NCBI GenBank assembly: GCA_028874915.1
Contig: JAPPHA010000116.1
Coordinates: forward strand, 138,605-202,604
Length of the DNA: 64,000 bases
From: Paracoccaceae bacterium
Lineage (GTDB): Bacteria > Pseudomonadota > Alphaproteobacteria > Rhodobacterales > Rhodobacteraceae
Direction: 5' to 3'
In this document: in pieces, positions 24,265-43,913 of the stretch
Layout of the letters: the number at the start of each line of letters is the position of its first letter
Numbering within the stretch: position 1 is the stretch's first letter
The notes under the pieces: generated by a model
What the model saw: only the letters and a program-made list of their open reading frames with translations
Databases searched by the model: none
Told to the model about the DNA's origin: nothing
Position numbers and translations under genes: made by a program

Positions 24265-24298
24265 AGGCGGCTCAGCCCGGAAGTCCGGCAGGTGCGCA

Positions 24299-27436: not shown

Positions 27437-27531
27437 ATTTCTATCCTGCCAAGAGTTTGGAATGGCTCCAAGCTTGAAGCATGCTTTTTTAAACGGCGTG
27501 GTTCTCGATGCATAAACGAGGAGGGTTAATC

Positions 27532-28626
27532 ATGAAGACTTACAGAACCGTGTTATTGCGTTCGGCTTCCGCTTTGGCGGTCGGTGCATTCGCGATTCTT
27601 AACGCCACGGGCGTCGTCGCCGAAGATCGGTGTGACGATCCTCGGGTTGCAATGGCAATCGAGGAGGGTGAACTGATCGTCGTCGCGAGCGTCTTCGAGA
27701 CACCCGAAACGCAAAACGCGCATCGCGAGGGATTCTTAAGCTATTGGTGCCTGCCCGACGATTTCAAGGTGTCCTATGACATCAGAAACACGTCTGGGAC
27801 AATTGCTCGAATCGAGGCGGAAGTGAGCCAGGGCGTTCCGATTTCAGGAGACGTGACGACGATGCCAGCGATCACATGGCTGACCGATGCGGTCGAGCGT
27901 GGTCTGATCATGGCATACGAGTCACCCGAATACGAACACATGAAACTGCCGGAGAGGATCGGCCTGAACAACCGGCCGTACTGGACGTCGGACATGTACA
28001 TGATGTTCCCGATGTGGAACGGCAACGAGTTGCCCGATCTGGAGATCACGAGTTGGCATGACCTGCTGAAGCCGGAATTGAAGGGCAAGATGAGCCTGAT
28101 GGACGGTTCGACCCTGCAATCGGTCGCCCTTGTGTACCACTACCTGAAGCAGAGGCTGCCGGAGGACTACTGGGAGAAGCTGGCGGCGCAGGACGTGCTG
28201 ATCTCGTCGACGTCCATGCACGGCGTTGAGATGATGATGTCGGGCGAAAGGCCGCTGTCAATTCTCGGAGTCTCGGCCGACGCCAACGTGCTCTCTGACC
28301 AGGGCGCGACCCACATCCGGACGGCGATCCCCAAGGAAGGAGTCATGCTTCAGGAGCAGGCGACGGCAGCCTTCGCCGATGCACCCCATCCGAATGCCGC
28401 TCAGCTGTGGATCGATTTCCTCAGGAGTCATCCCGGGCAGCAGATCTTCGAGAAGTTCGAAGGACGAATTCCGGGCAGGGAAGGCGTACCCAGCAGTTTC
28501 GCTCTGACGCCAAACGCCGACGACATCGGCGACGCGGCTTTCGCTCCCGATTATCGGGAGATTGCTACGAACACCGACCTTGTGCGGACGGCTCAGGAAG
28601 AATTTGCAGCGATCTTTGCGAAGTGA
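27532..28626 (+). CDS. ABC transporter substrate-binding protein (Fe3+/polyamine/phosphonate-type, family 1-like)
   Basis: ORF track 27508..28626. ATG at 27532 is preceded by GAGGAGGG. It has a signal peptide MKTYRTVLLRSASALAVGAFAILNATGVVA. The substrate is not inferable from sequence alone. Confidence 0.8.
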   Translation: MKTYRTVLLRSASALAVGAFAILNATGVVAEDRCDDPRVAMAIEEGELIVVASVFETPETQNAHREGFLSYWCLPDDFKVSYDIRNTSGTIARIEAEVSQGVPISGDVTTMPAITWLTDAVERGLIMAYESPEYEHMKLPERIGLNNRPYWTSDMYMMFPMWNGNELPDLEITSWHDLLKPELKGKMSLMDGSTLQSVALVYHYLKQRLPEDYWEKLAAQDVLISSTSMHGVEMMMSGERPLSILGVSADANVLSDQGATHIRTAIPKEGVMLQEQATAAFADAPHPNAAQLWIDFLRSHPGQQIFEKFEGRIPGREGVPSSFALTPNADDIGDAAFAPDYREIATNTDLVRTAQEEFAAIFAK

Positions 28627-28782
28627 CGCGCAAGTGGATCTCGCGTTTCGCCTGACCCCCCCCGGTCGGCATTCTTCGGAAGAGGTGGAACGCGACGTGA
28701 ATCCGGAATGCGGGGCGGCGCCCTGGTCGCCGCCCCTTTACAATGTCTTGTCGAGGCAACGGCCGACTCCCGGGAGGACCAG

Positions 28783-29889
28783 GTGACGGCATACGTGGAG
28801 GTACGGGGACTCCGCAAGAGATTCGACGAAACCTGGGCCGTCGATGACGTGAACTTCGAAGTCGAGAAGGGCAATCTTCTCGTACTTCTTGGACCCAGTG
28901 GATGCGGCAAGACCACCACGCTGCGATGTGTCGGCGGACTGGAACAGCCGGAATCGGGTGAGATCGTCATCGACGGCGAGGTCATGACCAAAGTGGACGA
29001 GGGGCTGTTCGTTCCGCCCAATGCGCGCGGAATGGGTATGGTGGCCCAGTCCTATGCCATCTGGCCGCATATGAGCGTCCACGAGAACGTGGCGTTTCCT
29101 CTACGAATGAGGAAGGAAAACAGTTCCGAGATCTCGCGCCGCGTCCGGGACGCACTGGATGTCGTCAGGCTCGGTGACTTCGGTAGCCGGAACGCGACGG
29201 ACCTGTCGGGGGGACAGCAGCAGCGGGTCGCCCTTGCGCGCGCGATCGTCGGCAATCCCAAGGTCCTGCTGTTTGACGAGCCTCTCAGCAACCTCGACGC
29301 GAAACTTCGCGAGGAGATGCGCTATCTGTTGAAGGACATCCAGCGCGGCATCGGGACTACCGCGATCTATGTGACGCACGATCAGGCGGAGGCGATGGCC
29401 CTTGGTGACGAATTGCTCGTCATGAACGCCGGCAGGATCGAGCAGCGTGGCGATGCACGTTCCCTCTACAGCGAGCCGAAAACGCGGTTCGTGGCCGACT
29501 TCATAGGAGTCGCGAATCTCCTGAAGGGCAGGATCGAGAGCGGCAGGCCGACCGAATCGCGCTTGATCGAGGTTCGACTGGATGGCAAAGACGGCGACTC
29601 CTGCGTTCTCCACGTCTCCAGCGTCACAGAGACGCTGAGCGGCGATGTGACTGTGGTGGTGAGGCCAGAGTGGATGAGGGTGCACAGGACGAAACCGGAA
29701 TCGGAGGAAAACCTGATCGGTGGCAGGGTCCACAAGAGTCAGTATCTGGGCGACCGGACGGAGATGCTCGTCGACACCGGATTCGCGCGGATGCGGGTGT
29801 GGGTGGACGGTGACCAGGCTGTCGAGGATGGTTCAGCGGTCCACCTCGAGATCGACAACGAAAGATGCGTTGCGCTGCCGGTTGGTTGA
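28783..29889 (+). CDS. ABC transporter ATP-binding protein (PotA/FbpC/MalK-like, with C-terminal regulatory domain)
   Basis: This is the real part of ORF track 28708..29889. GTG at 28783 follows GGGAGGA. It has Walker A GPSGCGKTT, signature LSGGQQQR and Walker B LLFDEPLSNLD. Confidence 0.9.
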   Translation: MTAYVEVRGLRKRFDETWAVDDVNFEVEKGNLLVLLGPSGCGKTTTLRCVGGLEQPESGEIVIDGEVMTKVDEGLFVPPNARGMGMVAQSYAIWPHMSVHENVAFPLRMRKENSSEISRRVRDALDVVRLGDFGSRNATDLSGGQQQRVALARAIVGNPKVLLFDEPLSNLDAKLREEMRYLLKDIQRGIGTTAIYVTHDQAEAMALGDELLVMNAGRIEQRGDARSLYSEPKTRFVADFIGVANLLKGRIESGRPTESRLIEVRLDGKDGDSCVLHVSSVTETLSGDVTVVVRPEWMRVHRTKPESEENLIGGRVHKSQYLGDRTEMLVDTGFARMRVWVDGDQAVEDGSAVHLEIDNERCVALPVG

Positions 29890-30211
29890 TGCCGGTCGTC
29901 ACTGAATCGGCCGAGGGTCCGAACATGCCCGGCCTCTTCCCTCGACCAGCCGGGCCCGTCATCATCGACGCTCCCGAACCGACTGCGACAGCCTCCTGTC
30001 AGACTGGGCGACAATCACTCGAACCCTCTGGGTCGGCAAGGGGCTTGCCGAAAAGCGGTATGCGCAAATCTCGCGAGATCTACCGGACGACAGCATGGCT
30101 AATCGGCTGTCATCACGTGGGCGGCCGTTTGGCGGAATTCGACCGTCCCATCCGCGCCGTGCCCCGAACGTGCCGTTTTCTTCCGCTCCGCCGTGCGGTG
30201 AGACAGGTCGC

Positions 30212-31909
30212 ATGACGGGATCTGCCGCCTTGCGCACGGCCAGGAGGCTGATCAGGGGCGAGCTCCGGATGGACAGGTTGGCCTTTTGGGCCGCCGCGGC
30301 CTTGATTTCGCTCGCGATCGTGTATCCGGCCTCGATGTCCGTGTACGCCGCCTTCACCGAGTCAGGCGTGTTCAGCCTTGGCGGATTCGCGAGAATCCTG
30401 GAGCATCCCACCGTCGGACGGGAAATCGTCACGACGATTCTGTTCGCGACAGGCGCGACCTTCGGCGCAGCGGTGATCGGAGTCCCGCTGGCATGGGTCA
30501 ATGCGCGCACCGATGTTCCCGGGCGCCGCCTGCTTGAAATCCTGTGCGTCGTACCGTTGTTCATTTCGGCATTCGTGGGGGCCATGGCCTGGCGGCTTCT
30601 TCTCGTGCCCAGGGCCGGAATGTTCACCCGCCTCATGACTGACTGGGGATGGCCGCCGGAGTTGCTGCCGGATGTCTACTCCCTGACGTCGATGATCGTC
30701 ATCCAGTCGATCTTCTACTCTCCGTTCATGTATCTGTACGCAGTCGCTTCGCTCAGGCAGATGGACCCAAGCCTGGAGGAAATCGCGCGCATCCACGGGG
30801 CCGGCAACTGGCAGGTGCTCCGGCGCGTGACGCTGGCCGTCAACGGACCGGCGCTGCTCTCCGGAATGGTGCTGGTGTTCGTGTTCACAGTGGGCACTCT
30901 GGAAATTCCCATGGCCCTCGGAGTTGCCGGCGGGAACTACGTTCTGGCGACGCGCATATGGTCACTGATGAGCGACTATCCGCAGGATGTGACCATGGCG
31001 GCATCACTGGGGATTCTCGCGATCCTGATTGCCGGCACCGGAATCTGGATACAGCGGAGACTGCTGGGCGAGCGCCAGTTCACCACGGTCACCGGAAAGG
31101 GATATCGTGCCAGCCGCATCCGGCTCGGAAAGTGGCGTTGGGTCGCGTTCGGGCTGGTTGTATCCTACGTCACGATCGCCGTGATCGCGCCTCTTCTCGT
31201 GCTGGTTCTGGTCGGCCTCCAGAAGTACTGGGCGGGTTCGTTCCAGACCGACCTGTTCACGCTGGACAACTTTCGAAGCGTCCTCTTCGAATACGATGTC
31301 ACGAGACGCGCGATCGCCAATTCCCTGTTGGCGTGTTCGGTTGCCGCCACCGTCGCGGTGCTTCTGTCGGCAGTACTGTCGCAGATGAAATCGAGAAGTG
31401 GCGAGTCCGTCATGGGACTGCTGTGCCTACTACCGATCGCAATCCCGGGGGCGATCTTTGGGATGATGGTTCTCTTCGCGTTCGTGAGGACGCCGATCTA
31501 CAACACGCTCGGAATCATCATCTTCGCCTACGTCATCGGCTACTTCTACCTCTCCTACCGGACGATCTATTCGGTCCGAATGTCGATCCACGACGAACTC
31601 GAGCAGTCCGCCCGTATCCACGGAGCGACCTGGTGGCAATCGACCCGGAGGATCCTGCTTCCGCTCCTGAAGCCGGGCGTGTTCTCCGCCTGGTTGATGA
31701 TGTTCGTGGTGTTGGTCAGGGAGTTCTCGTCGGTCATGTTCCTTTACCGCAACGGAACCGAGGTCATGTCAGTCGTCTTCTTCCTGCTGATGGAGCGTCA
31801 TTCGGCGAGACTTGCGGCGTTCATGGTCATCCAGACCGTCATCCTGCTGGTCGTGATGGCGATATTCCAGAGGATCAGCTACCGGAACTCCGACACCATT
31901 GCCGTCTGA
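30212..31909 (+). CDS. ABC transporter permease, fused two-module (FbpB/AfuB-like)
   Basis: ORF track 30095..31909, about 12 TM segments and two EAA-type loops (IARIHGAGNWQVLRRVTL and SARIHGATWWQSTRRILLPLL). The start is uncertain: 30095, 30212 or 30269. I chose 30212 for a typical 565-aa length. Confidence 0.85.
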   Translation: MTGSAALRTARRLIRGELRMDRLAFWAAAALISLAIVYPASMSVYAAFTESGVFSLGGFARILEHPTVGREIVTTILFATGATFGAAVIGVPLAWVNARTDVPGRRLLEILCVVPLFISAFVGAMAWRLLLVPRAGMFTRLMTDWGWPPELLPDVYSLTSMIVIQSIFYSPFMYLYAVASLRQMDPSLEEIARIHGAGNWQVLRRVTLAVNGPALLSGMVLVFVFTVGTLEIPMALGVAGGNYVLATRIWSLMSDYPQDVTMAASLGILAILIAGTGIWIQRRLLGERQFTTVTGKGYRASRIRLGKWRWVAFGLVVSYVTIAVIAPLLVLVLVGLQKYWAGSFQTDLFTLDNFRSVLFEYDVTRRAIANSLLACSVAATVAVLLSAVLSQMKSRSGESVMGLLCLLPIAIPGAIFGMMVLFAFVRTPIYNTLGIIIFAYVIGYFYLSYRTIYSVRMSIHDELEQSARIHGATWWQSTRRILLPLLKPGVFSAWLMMFVVLVREFSSVMFLYRNGTEVMSVVFFLLMERHSARLAAFMVIQTVILLVVMAIFQRISYRNSDTIAV

Positions 31910-31948
31910 CAGGTGCCTCCGCCGGGGCGACCGCGCGAACCGCCCCTT

Positions 31949-32377
31949 TCAGCCGACACGGAGTCTCTCGGTCTCGATGATGGCCTCGACGGTGATCTCC
32001 ACCCTGGCCTTGGGGACGCCAAGTCCGGCCACCTGAATGAGCGTACTTGCGGGCCGGTTGTTCCGAAAGTACTTGAAGCGCTCGTCGGACGCTTCGTAAT
32101 ACTCCGCAAGATCGAGCACGTAGGTCGTCGACGTAACGACGTCGTCGAATGTGGCTCCGACATGACCGAGCCCAATCCCAATGTTCTCGCAAGTCTGGCG
32201 CAGCTGCTCGCGCATCGTCTTTGCGACAACGTCGCCGTTCGGCAGCCGCGGTGTCTGGCCGGAAAGATAGACATGCGTGTGCGTCTCGTCGCTGACCACG
32301 ATGATCGGAGTGTACAAAAGTTCCCCGTTTTCGACGCGTGCCCACATGTCATCCGGGTTCAAGAACAGTCTCTTCAC
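31949..32377 (-). CDS. RidA/YjgF/UK114 family protein (single domain)
   Basis: ORF track 31949..32377, 142 aa. VYLSGQTP...MREQLRQTCENIGIGLGHVGATFDDVVTSTTYV...RPASTLIQVAGLG...RVEITVEAI matches the RidA fold pattern. Confidence 0.85.
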   Translation of the reverse strand: MKRLFLNPDDMWARVENGELLYTPIIVVSDETHTHVYLSGQTPRLPNGDVVAKTMREQLRQTCENIGIGLGHVGATFDDVVTSTTYVLDLAEYYEASDERFKYFRNNRPASTLIQVAGLGVPKARVEITVEAIIETERLRVG

Positions 32378-32486
32378 TATCGGTCTCCTCCTCAGTTTCT
32401 CGGTTCCCGGTCAGACCCGGTTCACGAATTCGCCGGCTGCACCTGCGTGCCGGTCGGTATCGTCGGTTCGGTTCGCTTGCCGGATC

Positions 32487-33776
32487 TCAACCTTCGATCA
32501 CGGCGGTCAGGTCATACAGGATCCGGCATCCCGGCACGAGGACAGGGCCGTCAGTGCGAAGGTTGGTGGTCGGTGGCAGCCGGTCGCCGAGCTCGGCCCG
32601 CCACGGCTCTTCCGCCTCCTGGAGATCATTGTAGTCGACATAAACGGCGCGACGTTTCACCAGATTGCGGACACTTGTCCCGGCGGCACGGCAAATCGCC
32701 TCGACATTCCTGAGAATGTATCGGGATTGAAGGCCGATGCCCGACGTGTGGAACGGAAATTCCGGATCCGGTCGCGCCTCGATGGCAAGACCTGCGCGGT
32801 AGTCAGTGGCCATCTGCGCGGAAAGGAACAGGTAGGGTCCTGCCCTTACCGCCTGCGGTTCCGCGCCCAGGGGTGATGGCGCATCGTCCGTCGAGATAAT
32901 TTCCTTTCTGTAGGGGCCCCTGGGGTCGATCGCCACCAGTTCGATCTCCACAACCGTGTGCGGGACAGCCAAACGAGACTGAACGACGAACCGGGCCGGC
33001 GGATCGACCGGAAAGTGCTCTTGCCAGACCTCGTCGAACACGGCGAAGTCGGACATGCGCTCGAGATAGATCTCGGCGCGCACGACGTTGTCGAAACTGC
33101 ACCCCGCGTCATCGAGAAGTTTCCTCAGGTACTCGAGCACGTATCTCGTCTGGAATCGCACGGGGTTGTGCCGGTACGGAAGTTCGGGGTGCGGGACGAT
33201 CTCGTCGATCGGGCCGCGCGGCCCGGTGGATGTGGTTCCGCGCGTGAAAACGAAACCGCCACCCCGAACGGCCTGCGAATACACTGACCAACCGATCGCG
33301 GCGACCTGGCCGATGGCCTGGACGCTCCTGATCGGTACCAGTTCGCGGTCCAAATCCGCGTCCGAGGCGAGCACTGTCATGTCGAGACTCACGGTCGCCC
33401 CGTGCACCGGGAGTTCGGGAATGATCAGAAGGCTGCTCGGTGGGGCGGCATCTGCATCGAACCACTCCTTTCGAACCCGCAGCGCCATGTCGACCTCTCT
33501 CGGATCCGTGTGGTACGAGTTGATCTTGAGGCATCTCGGCAGCGAGGCACCCATTCGCTGCAGGGTCGTGTCCAGGTTCGCGTAGACGTACGACAGTTGC
33601 CGGTGAACGCTGGATCCGTGCCAATAGTAGTTGGGCAGAAGCTTGGCCTCGGCGGGAATGCCCAGTGTCGGATGAACCGCCATCTGTCCCCCGGTGAAGA
33701 CAAGGTCCCCTGCGCGCGCCGCAATCGGTGGCGTTCCGGGAGGCCCGTCCGGATGATGCTGGTACTCGATCTTCAT
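32487..33776 (-). CDS. triple-domain RidA/YjgF-family protein (three tandem RidA-like domains in one chain)
   Basis: ORF track 32487..33776, 429 aa. There are three consecutive segments of about 130-140 aa. Each has the RidA pattern: (A/V)RAGxxxFxxGQ-like start, a helix with NL/YL..L...G, xxxVYL/YH and a final VEIE/LD..V. They are roughly aa 1-140, 150-290 and 300-429. Confidence 0.8.
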   Translation of the reverse strand: MKIEYQHHPDGPPGTPPIAARAGDLVFTGGQMAVHPTLGIPAEAKLLPNYYWHGSSVHRQLSYVYANLDTTLQRMGASLPRCLKINSYHTDPREVDMALRVRKEWFDADAAPPSSLLIIPELPVHGATVSLDMTVLASDADLDRELVPIRSVQAIGQVAAIGWSVYSQAVRGGGFVFTRGTTSTGPRGPIDEIVPHPELPYRHNPVRFQTRYVLEYLRKLLDDAGCSFDNVVRAEIYLERMSDFAVFDEVWQEHFPVDPPARFVVQSRLAVPHTVVEIELVAIDPRGPYRKEIISTDDAPSPLGAEPQAVRAGPYLFLSAQMATDYRAGLAIEARPDPEFPFHTSGIGLQSRYILRNVEAICRAAGTSVRNLVKRRAVYVDYNDLQEAEEPWRAELGDRLPPTTNLRTDGPVLVPGCRILYDLTAVIEG

Positions 33777-33898
33777 GTGCGGCGATCCTTCCCTGGCAAC
33801 AGATGCTCAACGAACGATTCGGTTCGTGGGTGGCGATTTCGACCGGTCAGGGCGAACGCGACGCAATGTTTCCTGGATTTTGCCTGGCACCTGCCGGA

Positions 33899-35416
33899 TC
33901 ATCCCGTCCCTTCCCGCGTTCCGCCAGCCCTGCGTCGCCGCCACTCGAGAACCGCGAACGCGATCAGGACCAGCACCGTCAGCGACAGTATGGCGGCCGT
34001 GATCGGCCTCTCGAAGAAGGCCAGAATGCTTCCATCCGACTGCACGAGCCCTCGGCGCAGCGACTCCTCCAGGATCTTCGCAAGAACAAAAGACAGCAGC
34101 ATCGGCGCGATCGCGATGTCGAGCTTGCGCAAGACGTAGCCGATTATTCCGAACGCGAGCATCACCGCGAGGTCGAAACTGCTCGATTTCACCGAGTACG
34201 TACCGACCACGCAGAACGCGACCACGATAGAGTAGAGCAGCGGCCGCGGGATGGTCATGATCCGAATCCACCAGCGCATCGTCAGACGCCCGAACACATA
34301 GAGGGCAACGGTTGCGAACAGGACGGACATGAACAACCCGAAGATCACGTCGCGGTGTTCGGAAATCAGAAACGGGCCCGGCTGCAGGCCCTGGGCTATG
34401 AGCGCGCTCATCAGGATCGCCGTGACGATGTCACCCGGAATACCGAACACGAGCATCGGGATCATGGCGGCGGCGCACACCGCGTTGTTGGCCGCCTCGG
34501 GAGCCACAACGCCCTCGTAGGCGCCCCTGCCGAATTTCTCGGGTTCCTTTGAGGCCCGTTTCGCCAAGCCGTAGGCGACCCAGGGCGAGGTCTCCGATCC
34601 GATTCCCGGAAGGGCGCCGATGAAGGTTCCGACCAGCGAGGAGCGAACGATCGTCCACAGGTGCTTCACAACGGACCTGAACTGCATCCCGGCACCGGCC
34701 AGATGGAGATTGACCGAACTCGAAACGCTCATCCGGCTTCTCCCGAACGATTCCATCTGGATGAGCACTTCGGTGATGCCGAAGAGTCCGGTCACCAGGG
34801 CGATGACGTTCAATCCGCCCGCAAGTTCGCGCAGGCCGAACGTGAGCCTTGGTGTGCCTCCGATCGGGTCCGTGCCGATCAACGCGAAGAACACGCCCAT
34901 TGAGGCGGCGAGGACGCCCTTCGCGAGGGAACGGCCGGAGACATAACAGATCATGGTCAGCGAGAAGAGCACCAGCGCGAAGAACTCGTGCGGGCCGAAC
35001 TGGATCGCGATCAGCGCCAGCGCCGGCGCGCCGAAAATCAATGCAACCGTTCCAAAGGCATCCCCGATCAGAGAGGCGTTCAGCGCCCCCATGATGGCGG
35101 AGCCCGCCTTGCCCTGTTTCCGCATCTCGTAACCGTCAAGAAGGGTCGCCGCGTTGGCCGCGGTCCCTGGGGTTCCGATCAGTATTGCGGAAATCGATCC
35201 GCCGAACGTGCCTCCCTTGAACAGGCCGATGAGGAACGGGATACCAATCAACGGCCCGACGAAGAACGTGAACGGTGAAAGAAGCGCCATTCCCATCGTC
35301 GCGCTCAACCCCGGGATGGCGCCAATCATGAGGCCGGCGACCGTGCCGGCCGAAATCGCCGCGATTGTCTTCCAGTTGAATACGACGAAAGCGGCGGCGA
35401 GCAGATCCTCGAACAT
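33899..35416 (-). CDS. tctA: tripartite tricarboxylate transporter, large permease TctA family
   Basis: ORF track 33899..35416, 505 aa, polytopic. MFEDLLAAAFVVFNWKTIAAISAGTVAGLMIGAIPGLSATMGMALLSPF is a typical TctA N-terminus. Confidence 0.9.
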   Translation of the reverse strand: MFEDLLAAAFVVFNWKTIAAISAGTVAGLMIGAIPGLSATMGMALLSPFTFFVGPLIGIPFLIGLFKGGTFGGSISAILIGTPGTAANAATLLDGYEMRKQGKAGSAIMGALNASLIGDAFGTVALIFGAPALALIAIQFGPHEFFALVLFSLTMICYVSGRSLAKGVLAASMGVFFALIGTDPIGGTPRLTFGLRELAGGLNVIALVTGLFGITEVLIQMESFGRSRMSVSSSVNLHLAGAGMQFRSVVKHLWTIVRSSLVGTFIGALPGIGSETSPWVAYGLAKRASKEPEKFGRGAYEGVVAPEAANNAVCAAAMIPMLVFGIPGDIVTAILMSALIAQGLQPGPFLISEHRDVIFGLFMSVLFATVALYVFGRLTMRWWIRIMTIPRPLLYSIVVAFCVVGTYSVKSSSFDLAVMLAFGIIGYVLRKLDIAIAPMLLSFVLAKILEESLRRGLVQSDGSILAFFERPITAAILSLTVLVLIAFAVLEWRRRRAGGTREGTG

Positions 35417-35432
35417 CGACCTCGGTCCGTTG

Positions 35433-35909
35433 CTAGAGCAGGAGCCCTTCGGGCAGGCCTACGTGAAGGCCGAACCGAAACACCAGTCTCAGCGCAACCG
35501 CGACACCGATTGCGACCGGAACGACGATTGCCAGATTTCGGTATCCCCCGACGAAACTTGCGACTGTTACGAACACGACCGTGGACACGACGAACCCGAA
35601 GCTGACCACCGAGAGCAGGTAGATCAGGATCCCGGCAAGACCCGCGCCCGCGCGGAGGTAGGCGCCGGAATCAGTCTCGACCGCCGGCAAGGCGCCGGAG
35701 CGGAGCGGGATCGTCGCCAGCACGAGCAGTGCTGCAGACGCCAGCAGCAACGACGCTAGGCGTGGGAAAAAGACCGGCTCGAGCGCGACGTCTGTGGTGC
35801 CAGGAATCGAGAACGCCCAGCCCCGAACCAGGCTTGGCGCCGTGAAGAAGAGGAGCACGCCCACCGCAAGTACAATTGCGGCGAGCGCGCCCTCAAGCTT
35901 CCATCTCAA
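35433..35909 (-). CDS. tctB: tripartite tricarboxylate transporter, small subunit TctB family
   Basis: ORF track 35433..35909, 158 aa with 4 TM segments, positioned between the TctC and TctA genes. Confidence 0.8.
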   Translation of the reverse strand: MRWKLEGALAAIVLAVGVLLFFTAPSLVRGWAFSIPGTTDVALEPVFFPRLASLLLASAALLVLATIPLRSGALPAVETDSGAYLRAGAGLAGILIYLLSVVSFGFVVSTVVFVTVASFVGGYRNLAIVVPVAIGVAVALRLVFRFGLHVGLPEGLLL

Positions 35910-35937
35910 GAAATTGTCACGGTCCGGATGTGATTGT

Positions 35938-36912
35938 TCAGCCGCCCAAGGCCGCCTTCAGCAATTCGGAGGCGTTCTCCCAGTCCTTGCGCCACGAAGC
36001 CTCGAACTCGTCTACGATGAACGTGTTCGGGTCTTGCAGGGTCAGTTCGAATGCCTTGAGCAAAGCGGGGTCCTGCTTGATCTGTCGCATGGCCTCCTGC
36101 AGCCTGCCCACCTTGTCGTCAGAAAGGCCGGGTGGAGCGTAGATCGCGACCGATGATCCTGCGATCACGTCGTACCCCAGTTCCTGCATGGTCGGCACAT
36201 CCGGAAACTGCGGCAGGCGCGACGCTGCGGCCACGGCCAGCGGACGCAGTGTGCCATCCTTCACGTAACCCTCGATCTCACCTGCGTCGTCGAACAGCAG
36301 TTCGCCTTCGCCCGCGATGATCGCCCTCATCTTCGGACCTCCGCCACCATGCGGGTTCCATTTGAACTTCGTGGGCGAGACTCCCGCCTGCTTGAGCAGA
36401 AGCAGCCACCCGTAGTGGTCCGACGTCGCGATGTCGGAGATCTCGATCGCGATCGGGTCACTCGCGGCCATCGCCGCCCCGACGAATGATTCCAGGCTGT
36501 CATACGCGGATGTGGCCCGTGTCGTCATGATCCACGGCACGAAGGAGACCTGCGCGATTGGTGTGAAATCGTCGGCATCGAGGTCCAGTCCCTGTGCGAT
36601 CGGGGCGATGATCGCACCGCCATTGTCGCAGATCGCCAACTCGTAGCCGTTGGGTTCTGCTTCCTTGATGTACTGCATTGCGACCGTTCCGGATCCACCG
36701 GTCCGGTACTGCGGAAGCAGCGACTGCCCGAGATACTTCGAGGCAACGCGTTCGACCATTCGCAGATTGCGGTCGACGCCACCGCCGGCGGGATAACACG
36801 CCGCGACACTGATCGGCCGGTCGGGATATCCGTCCTGCGCGATCGCGGGCGCAGTGCTTACGAGTGTCGCGGCCAGAGCAGCGGACACACCAATTGTCAC
36901 AAGTTTTCTCAT
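35938..36912 (-). CDS. tctC: tripartite tricarboxylate transporter substrate-binding protein (TctC/Bug family)
   Basis: ORF track 35938..36939. ATG at 36912 follows GGAGGGA. It has a signal peptide MRKLVTIGVSAALAATLVSTAPAIA, then QDGYPDRPISV..PAGGG.D, a Bug-family hallmark. Confidence 0.9.
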   Translation of the reverse strand: MRKLVTIGVSAALAATLVSTAPAIAQDGYPDRPISVAACYPAGGGVDRNLRMVERVASKYLGQSLLPQYRTGGSGTVAMQYIKEAEPNGYELAICDNGGAIIAPIAQGLDLDADDFTPIAQVSFVPWIMTTRATSAYDSLESFVGAAMAASDPIAIEISDIATSDHYGWLLLLKQAGVSPTKFKWNPHGGGGPKMRAIIAGEGELLFDDAGEIEGYVKDGTLRPLAVAAASRLPQFPDVPTMQELGYDVIAGSSVAIYAPPGLSDDKVGRLQEAMRQIKQDPALLKAFELTLQDPNTFIVDEFEASWRKDWENASELLKAALGG

Positions 36913-36981
36913 TGATCCTCCCTCCAAGTGCGTTCTCATTCTCTCTTGGAAAATTCAAACGTCATCGAATTTAGCCTGACT

Positions 36982-38367
36982 TCACGCGTGGTTCAATGCC
37001 GTCACGTCGATCTGGGCTGCGGCCTCTTCGACCGGTCCCGGACCGGGAACAAACACGCAGTCGAAGGCCGGCAGATCTCTGGTTGCGAACAGGGGGCGAA
37101 TGGCCTCGTAGGCGATAAGGTCCGCTTCCGTGCGAAGATAGACCACGGTCTTCGTGATCGCCTCCGGGCCGATTCCGGACGCGGCGCAGCACTCCCGGAT
37201 GCGTTGCCATGCCCACCAGATCTGTGCCGGCACCGAGGGTGAGCTCGTGTTTGCTTCCAGCGAGCGCACCAGATCCGCAGCTTCGGGGGCGACCGTATCG
37301 GCGTTTCTGACAATGCGGCCGTCCGGTCCAATGCCCAGCATGCCCGCAAACAGCAGTAGCGGCCCCGCACGGACGACCGCAGGTCCCGCGAACGGGGCAG
37401 GCCAACGCCAACCGAGATCGGAACGGTCGAGCGTACCGGGACGCAGTGCCGTCGGCTCAATTTCGATTCGGCAACCCTTGTGACCCACCTCGTCGAATCC
37501 GACCACTGTCAACGCGGGAGCGCATCCGCCGAAAAAGTGCTGATGCACCCTGTGGAAGGTCCCGAAATCGCGAAGGTCGGCGAGATAGACACGAACGTGC
37601 ACGATGTCTGACATCGCCATGCGGTTGCTCGCCAGGGCACGTCGAATCTCGTTGTAGACGAACCAGGTCTGAGCCGCGATCGGGCCGTCGCGCGCGTCCG
37701 GATGGCTGCGTCCCGTCTCCAGGAAGCGTCCCTCCTCCGGAACGTCGTCGAAACCGGCGACCACAGGTTTGCCCGGTAGCGCCGTCCTGATCGGAATGTG
37801 GCCGGCGAGGAACACGAGCGGCCCGCTTGCCGACATCTGCGAATAGATGGAGGCGGACGGGTTTGCAGCGTCTCCTGCCGGAGTCAGTATCCGGCGCGCG
37901 CCGAGGCAGTCACGGTCCTCGACATCGACCGCGATTCCTTCGATTCCGAACCAGCCGCCGCGCTGGCCCCCGACGGATGACACGCCGAGTCCGCTGCTCG
38001 GGGCGGCTTCGGGCTGCCAGATCTTCCGAACCCGTTCGAGAACCGGAAAGAACCGCTTGTCACGCTGCCACATGCGCTGTCGCAGGATCTGGTCACCCCG
38101 GGTCCCGGCACGTGCGAGCACACGCTCCAGATTGCTGTGGGCGCGCCATGCGTCCGCCGTCGCCTCGCCCTCCATCCCGTCGACCAGGACAAATCCCTGC
38201 GACGGTCTGGCGAACTCCGGTGGAACATCAGAGTAGGACGCGGTTTCGTCGCCCGGCAGGCCTCCTCTCACTCCCGAGGTGAACACAAACCCGCCGCCGC
38301 GCACCGCCGCCGGGTAGCCGGGCCAGGCGGTGAGTTCCGGTTCGGTCGGCACCTCCCTGCGGCGCAT
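36982..38367 (-). CDS. triple-domain RidA/YjgF-family protein (second paralogue)
   Basis: ORF track 36982..38463. The likely start is ATG at 38367 (MRRREVPTEPELTAWPGYPAAVRGGGFVFTSG...). GTG at 38463 (GTGA overlap with the upstream gene) is an alternative. There are three RidA-like modules with cores VRGGGFVFTSG, SASGPLVFLAGH and VRAGPLLLFAGM. The last ends in IDVTAL. Confidence 0.78.
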   Translation of the reverse strand: MRRREVPTEPELTAWPGYPAAVRGGGFVFTSGVRGGLPGDETASYSDVPPEFARPSQGFVLVDGMEGEATADAWRAHSNLERVLARAGTRGDQILRQRMWQRDKRFFPVLERVRKIWQPEAAPSSGLGVSSVGGQRGGWFGIEGIAVDVEDRDCLGARRILTPAGDAANPSASIYSQMSASGPLVFLAGHIPIRTALPGKPVVAGFDDVPEEGRFLETGRSHPDARDGPIAAQTWFVYNEIRRALASNRMAMSDIVHVRVYLADLRDFGTFHRVHQHFFGGCAPALTVVGFDEVGHKGCRIEIEPTALRPGTLDRSDLGWRWPAPFAGPAVVRAGPLLLFAGMLGIGPDGRIVRNADTVAPEAADLVRSLEANTSSPSVPAQIWWAWQRIRECCAASGIGPEAITKTVVYLRTEADLIAYEAIRPLFATRDLPAFDCVFVPGPGPVEEAAAQIDVTALNHA

Positions 38368-38459
38368 TTCGATCTCCGGGACGAAGCGATGCCGGCGGCA
38401 TCGGGCCTTTGGAACGACACCAGCGGGCGGCCGGGTCGGCCACCGACGCCGTGCGGGTT

Positions 38460-39449
38460 TCACATCCCGAGAAGCCTAGTCGCGTTCCCGGACAGGATCA
38501 AGGACCGCTCGTCCTCGCTGAGGCCGGCGTGTTGGGTGACGAACTCGACCGGACGCTGGTATGACATGTCGAAGCAGAAATCGCTGCCAAGGACGACCCT
38601 GTCGGCGCCGACGAGCGAGATGAGGTAGTCCAGGGCCGGATGGGCGTGCGTGATGGTGTCATAATAAAACCGTCGCAGATACGTGTCGGGCGGGTTGCGC
38701 AAATGCCGGCATTCCGGGCGTACCCCCCATCCGTGCGTGATCCGACCCACCAGGTAGGGAAAGGTTCCGCCGGCGTGTGGCAGGCAGAACGTCAGGTCCG
38801 GAAACCTGTCCAGCACTTCGCCGAAGATCAGATGGGAGGCGGCGATCGCCGATTCGGTCGGATTGCCGATCAGGTTCGTCAGATAGAATTTCCGAAGTCG
38901 GTCGGGATCGACGACGTTGATCGGATGAAGGAACACCGCGAATCCCCGGTCCTGGATCGCCTCGTAGATCGGGAAGAAACTCTCGTCGGACAGTTCCCTG
39001 TCTCCGACCCGGGTGCCCATGTATATGCCCCGAATCCCCGGCGAGTCCTGGATTCGGGCCAGTTCGGCCAGAGCGATGTCAGGCACGTGCATCGGAAGAG
39101 TCGCCAGACCGACAAAACGGTCCGGGTGGGAGAGGTGGGCCTCGACGCAGGCATCGTTGAAGGCTTCCGACAGCCGCCTCGCCAGATCTGCGGGCGCCCA
39201 GTAGACCATCGGTTGCGTCAGTGACAGGGCATGGACAGACACGCCTTGTTCGTCCATCGAGTCCAGCCTTGCCGAAATATCGTAGTAACGGATCTCCACC
39301 GGTGTGATCTGTTTGCCGATGGCGATACTCGGTCCCTCGACTCCGTCCCACTTGCCACCGATCCCGAACTTGCCGCCCTCCTCGGCCACCAGCTTCAGAT
39401 AGGCCTCGGGAAAAAAATGCGCATGGATGTCGATTGTCCTGACCTTCAT
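38460..39449 (-). CDS. Amidohydro_2 family metal-dependent decarboxylase/hydratase (ACMSD/LigJ-like)
   Basis: ORF track 38460..39764. Start trimmed to ATG at 39449 (MKVRTIDIHAHFFPEAYLKLV..., the HxH motif), with ...FLHP...CLPHAGG...VLGSDF (His/Asp ligands), 329 aa. Confidence 0.85.
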   Translation of the reverse strand: MKVRTIDIHAHFFPEAYLKLVAEEGGKFGIGGKWDGVEGPSIAIGKQITPVEIRYYDISARLDSMDEQGVSVHALSLTQPMVYWAPADLARRLSEAFNDACVEAHLSHPDRFVGLATLPMHVPDIALAELARIQDSPGIRGIYMGTRVGDRELSDESFFPIYEAIQDRGFAVFLHPINVVDPDRLRKFYLTNLIGNPTESAIAASHLIFGEVLDRFPDLTFCLPHAGGTFPYLVGRITHGWGVRPECRHLRNPPDTYLRRFYYDTITHAHPALDYLISLVGADRVVLGSDFCFDMSYQRPVEFVTQHAGLSEDERSLILSGNATRLLGM

Positions 39450-39676
39450 TGTTCCCCTATCCTCTCGTGTCAGTCCGGTCCGAGCTTCCGGACCCGCCCG
39501 GGCGACGGCCCGTTTCGCGGAACGAGAGGCTAAAGGTCGCAACCGCCGGTGTCCAGAAATCGCCGGAGTGCCCCTGGTGGTGGAACATGCCCCGGATCGC
39601 AATTTGGGTTTCGTGCGACGGGACATGCCCCTATGGTACGCGTCCCGGTGGAACGCCGATACGCGGGGAGGGAACA

Positions 39677-40153
39677 ATGGGCGAGGGTACGGAAGATTCC
39701 GGACCGGTCGGAGTCGGATCGATCGACCACGTGGCGTTGGCGGTCCCCGACTTGGACACTGCAATTTCGTTCTTTCGGGACCGCTTTGCCGCCGAGGTCA
39801 GCGAGGCCGTTACCCTGGCCGAACAGTCCATTCGAATCGCATTCGTGCGATTGGCAAACGCCGAAATAGAACTGATGGAACCATTGAGCCGGGATTCGCC
39901 GATTGGACGCTTCCTCGCTCGAAATCCAGCGGGCGGTCTGCACCACATCTGCCTTGCGACGGACGACGCGTCATCTGCCCACTCAGCATCCTTGGCCCAG
40001 GGGTTGCGGCCTCTGAACCCCCCGAGGCCGGGTTATCACGGGCGCCCGTTGTTCTTCCTTCATCCCAAGGCCACTTTTGGAATGCTGGTCGAGATCGAGG
40101 AGGCCGAGCGGGAACCCGATGACGCGCGATACCAAAACTGGAGAGAGCGATGA
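39677..40153 (+). CDS. methylmalonyl-CoA epimerase-like VOC (glyoxalase) family protein
   Basis: ORF track 39449..40153. ATG at 39677 follows GGGGAGGGA. Contains IDHVALAVPDLDTAISFF...IELMEP...GGLHHICLATDD...FLHPKATFGMLVEIEE, the typical MCE pattern. Confidence 0.82.
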   Translation: MGEGTEDSGPVGVGSIDHVALAVPDLDTAISFFRDRFAAEVSEAVTLAEQSIRIAFVRLANAEIELMEPLSRDSPIGRFLARNPAGGLHHICLATDDASSAHSASLAQGLRPLNPPRPGYHGRPLFFLHPKATFGMLVEIEEAEREPDDARYQNWRER

Positions 40154-41034
40154 ACGAGAACCGAGACGACAGTTACCGGGAAATCCTGTACGAGGTGAAA
40201 GACCACGTCGCGTGGGTTACGATCAATCGACCGGAAGTGCGGAACGCGTTCCGGGAACAGACGCTGGATGAACTCATCGATGCGCTTCGCTCGACGAGGG
40301 ACGACCCGTCGATAACCTGTGCGGTCGTGACTGGATCCGGTGACAAGGCGTTCTCGGCCGGCGGCGACTTCTACGCGATGATGCGGCTGAATTGGGTCAA
40401 TGCCGCGCACTGGAACGAGCGCATGCTCGGACTCGCGATGACAATCCGGGGACTTCCGATCCCGGTGATCGCCATGGTCAACGGATGGTGCATGGGTGGC
40501 GGACACGAACTGGCCTTGTGGTGCGACCTCGTGATCGCGTCGGAAAATTCGGTCTTCGGCCAGACCGGTGCCCGCGTCGGCGCTTGTCCGACGGTCGGGG
40601 CCACACAGTACCTGCCGCGGCTGATCGGTGAACGACTCGCTCGCGAGATGATCTTCATGTGTCGGACCTTCACGGCGGAGGAAGCGGTTCGTGTCGGACT
40701 GATCAACCGGGTCGTCCCGCAAGCGGATCTGCGGCGCGCCACTGAAGAATGGTGTGCGCAGTTCAAGTCCCTGAGTTCGCAGACCCTGAGGCAGACGAAG
40801 AAGTCCCTGAACCACGAGTCGGATGAACTCTACGCCTCCTGGCAGCAGGGAATGGAGCTGCTCGCGCATGTCTGGGGTTCGGAGGAAGCCATGGAGGGGA
40901 TGAACGCGTTTCTCGAACGTCGAAAGCCGGACTTCCAGAAGTTTCGCGAGCGCAATCGAGAGACGGTCCGCGACTACCTCGACGGACTTGCGGCGGATGA
41001 CAACATGGCGCCGCCCAAACAGCCGCCGTCATGA
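40150..41034 (+). CDS. enoyl-CoA hydratase/isomerase (crotonase) family protein
   Basis: ORF track 40150..41034, with an ATGA overlap with the upstream gene. Contains VAWVTINRPEVRNAF...VVTGSGDKAFSAGGD...VIAMVNGWCMGGGHELALWCDLVIAS. Confidence 0.9.
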   Translation: MNENRDDSYREILYEVKDHVAWVTINRPEVRNAFREQTLDELIDALRSTRDDPSITCAVVTGSGDKAFSAGGDFYAMMRLNWVNAAHWNERMLGLAMTIRGLPIPVIAMVNGWCMGGGHELALWCDLVIASENSVFGQTGARVGACPTVGATQYLPRLIGERLAREMIFMCRTFTAEEAVRVGLINRVVPQADLRRATEEWCAQFKSLSSQTLRQTKKSLNHESDELYASWQQGMELLAHVWGSEEAMEGMNAFLERRKPDFQKFRERNRETVRDYLDGLAADDNMAPPKQPPS

Positions 41035-42239
41035 CACGGGACCCCGGCAGGACCGGACCGCTGTCGGGAATCCGGGTCGTCGATCTCAGCCGGATTCTTG
41101 CCGGACCGTTCTGCACCATGAACCTCGGTGACATGGGCGCCGAGGTCATCAAGATCGAGCAACCCGGAAAGGGCGACGATACCCGGGGCTGGGGCCCCCC
41201 TTTCGTGGGCGGTGAGGCCGCATATTTCCTGGGAGTGAACCGGAACAAGCGGGGGATGACTCTGAATCTCAAGGACCCGCGTGGTCTGGAGATGTTGAGG
41301 TCACTCCTGCGGTCGGCCGATGTCATCGTCGAAAACTTCAGGACGGGAACGCTCGAGAACTGGGGGATCACGCGGGAGTGGCGCGAACGGGAAGCGCCGC
41401 GCCTCGTGCACTGCGAGATCTCCGGATACGGCGATGAGGGACCGCGTAGCGGAATGCCCGGATACGACTTCCTGATGCAGGCGGAGTGTGGATTGATGAG
41501 CATCACCGGTGCCCCGGACGGGGAACCGATGAAACTCGGAGTCGCGATCGTCGACGTTTGCACCGGAATGTATGCGTCGATGGGAATCCTCGCCGCCCTC
41601 AACGACCGCAACAGAACCGGCCGCGGGCAAAAATTCGAGGTCTCGCTGTATTCGACCGGGCTCTCGATGCTGGTGAACGTCGCTTCCAATCACCTTGCCA
41701 GCGGAAGGGAGCCGGGTCGCTATGGCAACGGTCATCCGAACATCGTTCCCTATCGCGCTTTCGAATGCTCGGACGGCAGCATCGCGCTCGCGGTCGGCAA
41801 CGATTCCCAGTTCTCCCGCCTCGCGGAGTGCCTGAACCACCCGGAGTGGTCCGCCGACGATCGATTCGCCCGCAACGCGGATCGCGTTCGAAACCGGGAA
41901 GCGATCGACGCCCTCATCTCCGAGGCGCTGGCCGAGCGCAGTGTCGACGCCTGTCTGGAGCAACTGCGCGAGCGCAACATTCCCTGCAGCCCGATCAACG
42001 GTGTGCACGAAGCGATCGCCGACCCGCAGACCGCAGCTTGTGACATGATTGCAGAACTTGAGCATCCGACCGCAGGGGCGATCCGAATGCTTGGAATTCC
42101 GTACAGTTTCTCCGACACGCCGGCCTCGGTCGAACTGCCGCCACCCCGACTCGGTTCGGACACCGAGGCGATCCTGTCAGAGGCGCTCCACCTGGATCCG
42201 GAAACCATCGCGAAATACCGGCGAGACGGTGTGATCTGA
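41031..42239 (+). CDS. family III CoA-transferase (CaiB/BaiF/Frc-like)
   Basis: ORF track 41031..42239, with an ATGA overlap. Contains LSGIRVVDLSRILAGPFCTMNLGDMGAEVIKIE...DVIVENFRTGTLE...GYDFLMQAECGLMSITG. Confidence 0.9.
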   Translation: MTRDPGRTGPLSGIRVVDLSRILAGPFCTMNLGDMGAEVIKIEQPGKGDDTRGWGPPFVGGEAAYFLGVNRNKRGMTLNLKDPRGLEMLRSLLRSADVIVENFRTGTLENWGITREWREREAPRLVHCEISGYGDEGPRSGMPGYDFLMQAECGLMSITGAPDGEPMKLGVAIVDVCTGMYASMGILAALNDRNRTGRGQKFEVSLYSTGLSMLVNVASNHLASGREPGRYGNGHPNIVPYRAFECSDGSIALAVGNDSQFSRLAECLNHPEWSADDRFARNADRVRNREAIDALISEALAERSVDACLEQLRERNIPCSPINGVHEAIADPQTAACDMIAELEHPTAGAIRMLGIPYSFSDTPASVELPPPRLGSDTEAILSEALHLDPETIAKYRRDGVI

Positions 42240-42254
42240 CCGCGCGGCGCTTCG

Positions 42255-43358
42255 ATGCTTCGGATATCGGAACTTGAATCGTTCGGAGTCGCGTTGCGTC
42301 TCGGACGATCCATGCCTATGTCCGGTGAGACGGTTTCGGTTTCACGCAATCTGTTGGTGCGCGTGTCCGACGGCGAGGGCAATGCCGGCTGGGGGGAAGC
42401 CGCCTCGGCACCGCTCATGACGGGTGATACACTTCCGGGAATGCTCGCCGCGGTGGAATCCGCCGCGCCTCGGATTGCCGGACTGGAGATCGCCTCCGCC
42501 GGCGACATACGCGGCCTTGTCGAGTCGATGATTCCGAAAAGCCCGGGAGCAAGATGCGCGGTCGAAATGGCCGTTCTCGACCTTGTCGGTCGGCGAACCC
42601 GCACACCGCTTTACGAAATCCTGGGAGGTCGCGTTCGCGACAGCGCGGCGGTTTTGGCGCTTGTTGCGTCGGAGCAGTACGAGACGGAGGTTGAGCGACT
42701 TCTGCAAAGCGGCGTTCGGGCGTTCAAGGTCAAGGTCGGGATCGACGGTGTGGCGGCGGACCTGTCGACGTGCCATGCGGTTCGAACCGCCGTGGGGAGA
42801 GACATCCGGGTCTCGGCGGACGCCAACGGAGGATTCGGCCTTGCCGACGCACTCGCGTTCGCTGCCGGAGCGAAGGACGCCGGTCTGGATTTCATCGAAC
42901 AACCATTGCCGGCCTCGGACCTGGCCGGGATGGCCGCTTGCGTGGACGCGACGAGCGTTCCCATTGGCGCGGACGAAGGATTCCGCTCTGTTGAGGACAT
43001 CCGCCTCCACCACGAGGCGCGGGCCGCGTCCGGAGGGAGCCTGAAGCCTCTCAAGATGGGTGTCGGGGGAGTCCTGGCCGCAGGTAAACTGATGAACGCA
43101 CTGGAAATGAAAGTGAATCTGGCGGGCAAGGTTGCCGAGTCTTCGGTCGGCAGCGCTGCGATCGCCCATCTTGCCGTGACCCTGCCTCAGCTCGACTGGG
43201 ATGCCAGCGCAACGTGTCAGTATCTTTCGACAGATCTTGCCGTTCAGCCAGTGGAGATCGTTAACGGCGCGCTCGCACCGTCAGATGCTCCGGGTCTCGG
43301 CATAGAGGTCGATCCGGACAGGCTGCGTGCTCTTTTCGTTGGGCAGGACGGCACTTGA
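42255..43358 (+). CDS. enolase-superfamily enzyme (mandelate racemase/muconate lactonizing enzyme family)
   Basis: ORF track 42255..43358. Contains FKVKVG...IRVSADANGGF...FIEQPL...PIGADEG...LKPLKMGG-like metal-ligand and catalytic-lysine spacing. Specificity is not inferable. Confidence 0.85.
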   Translation: MLRISELESFGVALRLGRSMPMSGETVSVSRNLLVRVSDGEGNAGWGEAASAPLMTGDTLPGMLAAVESAAPRIAGLEIASAGDIRGLVESMIPKSPGARCAVEMAVLDLVGRRTRTPLYEILGGRVRDSAAVLALVASEQYETEVERLLQSGVRAFKVKVGIDGVAADLSTCHAVRTAVGRDIRVSADANGGFGLADALAFAAGAKDAGLDFIEQPLPASDLAGMAACVDATSVPIGADEGFRSVEDIRLHHEARAASGGSLKPLKMGVGGVLAAGKLMNALEMKVNLAGKVAESSVGSAAIAHLAVTLPQLDWDASATCQYLSTDLAVQPVEIVNGALAPSDAPGLGIEVDPDRLRALFVGQDGT

Positions 43359-43913
43359 CGAGCGACCACCGCGCCGTTCGGCAATGCCGGCACGGCAGCG
43401 GATACTGCAGGCGTGAGTCCGTCCTCGCGGTGAGGCATCCGAGACATGCAAACCGATGCCGGAAGGACGTCCTCGCTCCAGCCTTACCGCATGTCTTGAC
43501 CGGTTTGGCAGGAACGAATGCGGCCTCAAATGTGTTGGACGCAGTCGAACCGCCCTGAAGTCGTGAGTTCGCGAAAACCGACATTCGGTGGGTGGTTGAA
43601 CACCCGTGACGCACGAACTTCGGGACGAGAACTCATGCCCCGACGACTCGCGGATTCGCCTTCAAGCCGGATCGACAATACGCGTGCGGGAAGCAGGTCT
43701 GCTCGGGGATGTTGAGCATCTCCTGTCCGGTTTCGTTTGTTTCAGTGGTCTTCAGGTAACATTCGTCTCGACCCGATTCACCTTACCGACCCTTCCGGTC
43801 TGGTCGGACGCCGTTCCAAAGCTGATATGATCGTTCCTCGCCGACGCGGAAAACGCCATGTGCCAGGACAAGCAATTTCCGGATCGATTTACGAGCGTAA
43901 TACGGACGACAAG

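Follow-up and report, generated by a model that had tools for sequence, protein, structure and literature searches.

Single-chain triple-Rid proteins encoded on either side of a tripartite tricarboxylate transporter in a Paracoccaceae bacterium

Rid proteins of the RidA/TdcF/UK114 kind are separate subunits of 125–140 amino acids (aa) that assemble as homotrimers with three identical sites. Here we describe a locus in 64,000 nucleotides of DNA from a Paracoccaceae bacterium (assembly GCA_028874915.1, contig JAPPHA010000116.1, forward-strand positions 138,605 to 202,604; this whole stretch is referred to as the window, and positions are counted within it) which encodes three proteins of this superfamily. 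One of them, RidA1 (142 aa), has the size of a homotrimer subunit, whereas TriA (429 aa) and TriB (461 aa) do not, being single chains of three Rid modules with non-equivalent sites. Each module has the same fold as the homotrimeric proteins, and the second module of TriA keeps the equivalents of Tyr17, Arg105 and Glu120 of E. coli RidA.

Fusions of this type have been described before, by Niehaus et al. (2015, BMC Genomics; PMC4433059), who named them '3x-RidA', proposed that they are covalently linked trimer units and gave EF_0115 of Enterococcus faecalis as an example. In our literature searches on triple and tandem Rid proteins this was the only paper to use the name, and no published function was found for any 3x protein. 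TriA and TriB likewise carry three tandem Rid domains on a single polypeptide, and they are uncharacterised variants of this fusion type, not a new architecture. They differ from the published class, which was described as a subset of the RidA subfamily, in that five of their six modules lack Arg105. In the canonical triple-Rid proteins P0355 (three copies of the motif KPAR) and P0317 (which has an insert like that of TriA) the Arg is present in all three modules and the modules are 56–76% identical to one another, compared to 25–31% for the modules inside TriA or TriB. The first-pass annotation of the window had presented the triple-domain architecture as one without a characterised function; this went too far, as the architecture has carried a name since 2015 and the chorismatases, single-chain Rid-fold pseudo-trimers of like topology, are enzymes characterised in both biochemistry and structure. 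The asymmetric loss of the canonical site, which is kept in one of three modules in TriA and in none of three in TriB, appears to be undescribed, as do the conserved motifs specific to TriB and the linkage to transporter genes.

Modules, ancestry and predicted fold

Three RidA-type open reading frames (ORFs) had been reported for this locus, and all three were found where they had been placed, on the minus strand (Table 1). The repeated cores quoted for the two long ORFs, namely RAGDLVFTGGQ, VRGGGFVFTRG and VRAGPYLFLSAQ for TriA and VRGGGFVFTSG, SASGPLVFLAGH and VRAGPLLLFAGM for TriB, were present in the translations. RidA1, TriA and TriB scored 71.6, 125.4 and 81.8 bits respectively against the Pfam profile PF01042, all above its cut-off of 27.3 bits, and are therefore members of the Rid (YjgF/YER057c/UK114) superfamily. 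The expectation that this profile would match three times per chain held for TriA, which contained three stretches, but not for TriB, in which only the middle module was matched, so that Pfam alone would have half failed the claim of a triple protein. Profile-profile comparison bore out three consecutive RidA-like modules in both chains, with every pair of the six module sub-alignments related at 96–99.9% probability; the modules also matched E. coli RidA at 60–98% probability. Against TIGR00004 (cut-off 106.25 bits) TriA reached 116.2 bits only by summing its three stretches, and TriB (60.9 bits) and RidA1 (46.8 bits) stayed below the cut-off. Full-length homologues of the same size formed 198 clusters for TriA and 421 clusters for TriB (at 90% identity), and loci nearly identical to this one occurred in several Paracoccaceae metagenome-assembled genomes (MAGs), which argues that the fused proteins are not a product of chance, of a frameshift or of an assembly artefact.

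The two long proteins had also been described as strongly diverged paralogues. In agreement with this, they were 24% identical and colinear over 421 columns, their families aligning at 99.95% probability (E = 5e-38), and Gln at the Glu120 position was common to the third modules of both families. The colinear alignment and the shared third-module Gln suggest that the common ancestor of TriA and TriB was probably already a triple fusion. Given the more similar, Arg-bearing modules of P0355 and P0317, triple fusion of Rid modules probably happened more than once, with TriA and TriB as what are probably old, diverged examples of it. A search of 1.8 billion representatives with the TriB profile gave 120 matches at E ≤ 1e-30; among the best 150 matches 101 were 370–530 aa long, and at least about 100 clusters (50% identity) of ~370–530 aa matched the profile. 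A longer relative, P0293 (803 aa), carried six Rid modules in one chain, with Arg at none of the six Arg105-equivalent positions, and had a hydrophobic N-terminal segment, so that it is possibly exported.

AlphaFold2 models of TriA and TriB were built from 79-sequence alignments. Structure prediction supported the module count, as each long ORF was predicted with high confidence as one globule of three Rid modules (predicted local distance difference test, pLDDT, of 94.6 for TriA and 93.6 for TriB; predicted template modelling score, pTM, of 0.93 for both), and the Rid strand/helix pattern occurred three times in each model. We confidently predict from these models that both chains close into a pseudo-trimer. 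In Foldseek searches of the PDB, single modules matched RidA, UK114, RutC and the like with template modelling (TM) scores of 0.85–0.9. The second module of TriB resembled KP1_3112 of Klebsiella pneumoniae (3LYB, a structural-genomics entry named 'putative endoribonuclease') at 37–38% identity, with a TM score of 0.9 and a root-mean-square deviation of 1.6, including a long insert before helix 1; unlike TriB, KP1_3112 is a single domain of 165 aa without partner modules. In sequence searches of the PDB, both middle modules had the 2-aminomuconate deaminase AmnE/NbaF (6IZH) as their second-best match (6e-13 and 1.9e-8).

For the whole chains of both models the best structural matches were the chorismatases FkbO/Hyg5/XanB2 (4BPS, 5AG3, 5A3K), aligned over 388–418 columns at 13–15% identity, with TM scores of 0.53–0.63 normalised to the target and E values of 4e-12 to 6e-10. 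Chorismatases differ in length (~330 aa against 429 and 461 aa) and in context, since they belong to secondary metabolism and the shikimate pathway and TriA and TriB to transporter-linked catabolic clusters. There was no match at the sequence level: no chorismatase model was hit in an NCBIfam scan at E up to 1, and when the TriB alignment was run as a profile against the PDB (E up to 10) no chorismatase was returned and the Rid-family matches were all of 165 aa or less, so that the link lies at the level of the fold only. Other than the chorismatases, no 3x-Rid protein appears to have a solved structure. The chorismatase chain reportedly has pseudo-threefold Rid-like symmetry with a single working active site, and this site is said to carry out acid/base chemistry on an enol-pyruvyl group.

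These structural matches raise the alternative that TriB, and possibly TriA, acts as a chorismatase-like hydrolase or lyase, cleaving a C–O (enol-ether) or C–C bond in a cyclohexadiene- or aromatic-type carboxylate instead of acting on an enamine or imine. C–O cleavage of this kind is the main alternative for the TriB reaction. It would sit well with the lack of any Arg105 equivalent in TriB and with the repeated position of TriB beside MenB-like, MenC/MLE-like and coenzyme A (CoA)-activating enzymes, which represent chemistry around chorismate-derived rings. However, the identity is very low, both profile searches were empty of chorismatases, and the shared fold may merely reflect the common Rid pseudo-trimer; we consider this alternative unlikely, albeit one to be taken seriously.

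Active-site residues of the fused modules

Arg105 (S. enterica numbering) is required for deaminase activity, and the Arg-less subfamilies Rid4–7 have shown none (PMC4433059; PMC8113886). Residues equivalent to Tyr17, Arg105 and Glu120 of E. coli RidA were assigned in each fused module, with the codons checked and the frequencies counted among 79 sequences per family (Table 1). Just one of the seven Rid modules at the locus, module 2 of TriA (R262), keeps Arg105. The residue that defines the RidA subfamily is replaced in the other six, by Ser, Thr, Ser, Leu and Phe in the fused proteins and by Ser in RidA1, where Ser111, within the motif NNRPAST, takes the place of Arg105 while E127 is retained as the Glu120 equivalent; RPAST was invariant in an alignment of 23 RidA1 orthologues. 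A fused chain had been expected to offer non-equivalent sites, and this is what the Arg105 position indicates, being Ser, Arg and Thr along TriA and Ser, Leu and Phe along TriB, with each residue conserved family-wide. A survey based on hidden Markov models found exactly one Arg-bearing module in 107/111 TriA homologues and an Arg-bearing module in 0/72 assessable TriB homologues. Homologues of TriA and TriB are annotated 'RidA family protein' or, in some cases, '2-iminobutanoate/2-iminopropanoate deaminase'. The second label is doubtful for TriB because the residue needed for activity is absent, and judging from the residue patterns it is probably wrong.

The same patterns bear on the reading that both proteins are ordinary 3x-RidA, with three equivalent RidA sites serving general detoxification of 2-aminoacrylate and imines. 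PF01042 is present in both, the whole TriA chain passes TIGR00004 (116 vs 106 bits), and such proteins do exist, with PAR in all three modules of P0355 and P0317. Yet the loss of the essential Arg from five of six modules is conserved across both families, the modules are far less alike than those of the canonical 3x proteins, and the genes lie in transporter and catabolic clusters, not beside those of pyridoxal-phosphate dehydratases. We give this reading scarcely any credence.

Columns conserved at 90% or more numbered 21, 25 and 31 in modules 1, 2 and 3 of TriA, and 43, 62 (of 152) and 21 (of 149) in those of TriB. In TriB this concentration of conservation in modules 1 and 2 suggests one rebuilt, non-canonical acid/base site between them. 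Module 1 of TriB contains a conserved WQRDKRFFP motif, in which W100, Q101, D103, K104, R105 and P108 are invariant, and module 2 an insert with invariant GRSHPD and DEVGH; IEIE is also invariant, and both modules hold numerous invariant polar residues (His, Asp, Glu, Arg). R34, H77, R220–D224, H296, E302 and E304 belong to the invariant set as well.

Such invariant residues are typical of catalysis, and TriB is found consistently inside catabolic operons with enzymes, both of which argue against a non-catalytic role for TriB and/or TriA, in which they would bind an imported ligand or a partner as a sensor, a chaperone-like holdase or a sequestering protein. A role of this kind would be in keeping with the Arg-less Rid4–7, which have shown no deaminase activity, with the chaperone activity of some RidA proteins of which PMC4284807 makes mention, and with an operon of Aureimonas that has no obvious enzyme besides TriB. 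We rate it as distinctly improbable.

Gene neighbourhoods of TriA and TriB

The window is ~94% identical at the protein level to Paracoccaceae MAGs, in which the full cluster is kept in varying gene order: Albidovulum has TriA divergent from Amidohydro_2-TriB-TctCBA, and another Rhodobacterales MAG has the order TriA-Amidohydro_2-TriB-TctCBA. Pfam confirmed that the genes between the two long ORFs encode TctA, TctB and TctC, with PF03401, PF07331 and PF01970 on three adjoining genes as expected for a tripartite tricarboxylate transporter (TTT). The long ORFs had been noted to flank tctC-tctB-tctA on the same strand, which is true at this locus but is a lineage-specific order, given that Albidovulum and other relatives place TriA elsewhere.

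Outside the Paracoccaceae, the transporter that accompanies TriA is an ABC importer and not Tct; this importer and a Ser-type RidA1 are the recurring partners of TriA. Marine OCS116 and Rhodobiaceae have an isolated operon of RidA1, solute-binding protein, ATPase, permease and TriA, without TriB or Tct genes. In Binatia TriA stands beside formamidase-type and Amidohydro_1 enzymes, with a DAO-family oxidase near, and in Acidimicrobiales TriA comes after genes for an ABC importer of the Bmp type and a hydrolase of the isochorismatase family. The last arrangement resembles that of RutB/RutC in pyrimidine utilisation, where an isochorismatase-family amidohydrolase releases an enamine which the Rid protein deaminates (PMC8113886). 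Unlike TriA, RutC is a single-domain homotrimer, and TriA scored well below the RutC equivalog cut-off (58 bits against 169). One Hyphomicrobiales MAG locus (L083, equal to L012/L009; ~800–12630) comprised GntR, two RidA1-type genes, an ABC importer and TriA-cupin-TriA-TriA-TriA; its four TriA paralogues and two RidA1 proteins amount to 14 Rid modules, to which TriB, just upstream in L009/L012, adds three.

TriB recurs with importers of the TTT or Liv type and with genes for a VOC protein, an MLE-like enzyme and a MenB-like crotonase. The operon of Aureimonas altamirensis reads LysR-TctCBA-TriB and locus L079 reads TriB-TctCBA. Across the TriB metagenome loci, Tct genes were adjoining in at least 17/73 and a VOC gene lay immediately downstream in 15/73; near TriB in loci of the VOC type were an ABC importer of the Liv type and orthologues of two enzymes of the window, the MLE-like one and the MenB-like crotonase. 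As VOC, crotonase and MLE orthologues accompany TriB in distant genomes, the divergent operon at 39674–43358 would belong functionally with TriB.

In all Paracoccaceae-type loci TriB is adjoined by an ACMSD-like gene, here an Amidohydro_2 decarboxylase with TriB directly downstream of it. AmnE/NbaF acts after ACMSD in the breakdown of aminophenol, nitrobenzoate and tryptophan, and Rid-family proteins are known deaminases for enamines of the 2-aminomuconate type (PMC6449761). AmnE/NbaF differs from TriB in being single-domain with PAR, where module 2 of TriB has PAL, and the TriB cluster is without genes for an aminomuconate-semialdehyde dehydrogenase or a ring-cleavage dioxygenase. We weighed a pathway of the kynurenine type (ACMSD plus deaminase) for the cluster and did not adopt it, as the dioxygenase and the aldehyde dehydrogenase are missing and TriB has no Arg.

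TriA and TriB lay within 10 kb of each other in only 13/74 TriA loci, and most TriB loci were without TriA; an obligate TriA-TriB pair was rejected on these counts. They also speak against a hetero-assembly, in which RidA1 trimers, TriA and TriB would form one multi-Rid complex channelling successive labile intermediates. RidA1-type genes do accompany both TriA and TriB (in three to four copies at L085 and L089), and some loci combine TriB with four TriA paralogues and two RidA1 genes, but we think such a complex very improbable. At L085 (169–3764) and L089 (1228–5944), both metagenome contigs, the tandem RidA1-type genes flanking TriB carry RPAST, so that a Ser-type single-domain Rid protein accompanies TriB as well as TriA.

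In the window itself, seven co-directional genes occupy the minus strand at 31949–39449 in the order RidA1, TriA, tctA, tctB, tctC, TriB and Amidohydro_2, with intergenic gaps of 16–122 bp. The TriB frame stays open up to a GTG at 38463, which would give 493 aa; GGAG lies 8 nt upstream of the ATG at 38367 and homologues are 456–467 aa long, and the length was therefore taken as 461 aa. The Amidohydro_2 ORF extends 105 codons further, to a TTG at 39764, and would overlap the start of the divergent VOC gene. Both its Pfam match and its ACMSD alignment start at MKVRTIDIHAHFF, making 39449 the likely start; the protein matched human ACMSD over its full length (6.8e-59). When the transporter and pathway enzymes were scored against NCBIfam, the VOC protein (39674–40153, plus strand) was the sole pathway enzyme above its cut-off, as methylmalonyl-CoA epimerase (TIGR03081, 129 bits against 115). 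The crotonase, CoA-transferase and MLE-like enzyme each scored under their cut-offs and gave no substrate assignment, and the ABC importer components resembled PhnS2/T2/U2 only faintly. A promoter and terminator scan of 31700–39800 gave counts no higher than in shuffled sequence, and an Rfam scan of the whole window returned no family at threshold, and thus no riboswitch hint of a ligand.

Table 1. Features of the locus, with the residues of the fused modules at the Tyr17, Arg105 and Glu120 positions of E. coli RidA (counts among 79 sequences per family).
Feature	Position	Strand	Match	Tyr17 equivalent	Arg105 equivalent	Glu120 equivalent
ABC importer, conserved partner of TriA and RidA1: solute-binding protein, TOBE-domain ATPase, fused double permease	27508–31909	+				
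RidA1, single-domain Rid protein, 142 aa	31949–32377	-	Pfam PF01042, 7e-20			
TriA, single-chain triple-Rid protein, 429 aa	32487–33776	-	PF01042, three stretches, 1.6e-36			
TriA module 1, aa 1–150; D132 invariant	33327–33776	-		none assigned	Ser114 (73/79)	variable
TriA module 2, aa 151–288	32913–33326	-		Tyr166	Arg262 (78/79)	Glu277 (75/79)
TriA module 3, aa 289–429	32490–32912	-		Glu306	Thr403 (71/79)	Leu420 (Gln in 56/79)
tctA, large membrane subunit of tripartite tricarboxylate transporter	33899–35416	-	Pfam PF01970, 3e-137			
tctB, small membrane subunit	35433–35909	-	Pfam PF07331, 6e-12			
tctC, periplasmic solute receptor	35938–36939	-	Pfam PF03401, 1e-31			
TriB, single-chain triple-Rid protein, 461 aa	36982–38367	-	PF01042, one stretch; hhalign and AlphaFold2, three modules			
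TriB module 1, aa 1–160	37888–38367	-		Tyr18	Ser124/125 (78/79 for Ser124)	Gly141 (79/79)
TriB module 2, aa 161–312	37432–37887	-		Tyr175	Leu286 (71/79)	Glu302 (79/79); E304 kept too
TriB module 3, aa 313–461	36985–37431	-		none assigned	Phe435 (55/79)	Gln452 (79/79)
ACMSD-like Amidohydro_2 decarboxylase, directly upstream of TriB	38460–39449	-	Pfam PF04909, 5e-38			
Divergent four-gene operon: VOC protein, MenB/BadI-like crotonase, family III CoA-transferase, MR/MLE enolase-superfamily enzyme	39674–43358	+				

Beyond the divergent operon, the ~1.37 kb between the MLE-like gene and a sugar ABC binding-protein gene (43358–44727) held no convincing ORF and no Rfam family, the only candidate being a 286-aa TTG ORF without a Pfam match. 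A LysR-type regulator, common beside TriB elsewhere, was absent there. Just upstream of the ABC importer, 21068–26635 encodes dnaK and dnaJ together with a malic enzyme that carries a fused phosphotransacetylase-like domain. These adjoining housekeeping genes dnaK and dnaJ indicate that the locus is chromosomal, with no obvious mobile island. Further away, a 275-aa ORF on the minus strand (18722–19549) has OrfB_IS605 and Cas12f1-like TNB domains and is a TnpB/IS605-family transposon-associated nuclease gene.

Proposed roles of TriA and TriB

The explanation that we favour, with a little more belief than doubt, is that TriA and TriB are diverged triple-Rid paralogues, the first a deaminase with one site and the second a protein with one rebuilt site. 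One ancestral protein with three fused Rid modules would have given rise to the two anciently diverged paralogues, and each chain would fold into the trimer-like barrel that ordinary RidA builds from three identical subunits. Once fused, the three pockets between modules would have been free to diverge from one another.

In TriA one canonical, carboxylate-binding deaminase pocket (Tyr166/Arg262/Glu277) would have been kept next to two remodelled ones (Ser114, Thr403), which makes it a putative one-site enamine/imine deaminase. The substrate may be a nitrogen-containing acid that is either taken up through the ABC importer encoded nearby or set free by an amidohydrolase, by analogy with RutB/RutC and the 2-aminomuconate deaminases, and TriA may work together with the Ser-type single-domain RidA1. 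The other two pockets of TriA are conserved and may bind something else.

For TriB, the loss of Arg from all three modules makes a classical 2-imino-acid deaminase unlikely, and on the sequence evidence it is probably not one. Modules 1 and 2 would form the rebuilt site, and module 3, as the third leg, would have a mainly structural part. Chorismatases follow the same logic, with a mainly structural third module. Our preferred guess for TriB is the processing of a labile intermediate, of enamine or enol type, that arises from a carboxylate imported by the TTT, and in this lineage its step would come after the ACMSD-like decarboxylase and before the CoA-dependent steps of the MenB-like, MLE-like and VOC proteins.

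A bolder version, which we put forward only tentatively and think would sooner fail than hold, is that TriB represents a new enzyme family on the Rid pseudo-trimer scaffold. Through gene fusion two of its ancestral pockets would have been able to decay and the third to be rebuilt without Arg around WQRDKRFFP, GRSHPD, DEVGH and IEIE, to catalyse a reaction new to Rid proteins on a TTT substrate; with TriA and RidA1 it might then make up a multi-Rid relay that passes on successive labile intermediates in an undescribed pathway for nitrogen-containing acids.

Several observations weigh against the favoured explanation. Conservation is even over the TriA modules, so modules 1 and 3 may also be functional sites and the assignment of one site may be wrong. 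The operon structure at this locus is read from gene spacing alone. The aldehyde dehydrogenase and ring-cleavage dioxygenase expected in a kynurenine-type route are both missing from the cluster. An ACMSD-like gene was found beside TriB only in Paracoccaceae-type loci, and some TriB loci are without both Tct and VOC genes.

The practical impact of these findings is modest, as the architecture was already published and a new reaction is not demonstrated. Most of the Rid superfamily has no assigned function, and the subfamilies that lack Arg have long been a blank spot. The fused chains offer a natural experiment here, since fusion fixes the identity of each pocket and the conservation can thus point to one pocket per chain, not three identical ones. 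The minimal LysR-TctCBA-TriB operon of Aureimonas altamirensis makes the role of an Arg-less Rid protein directly testable.

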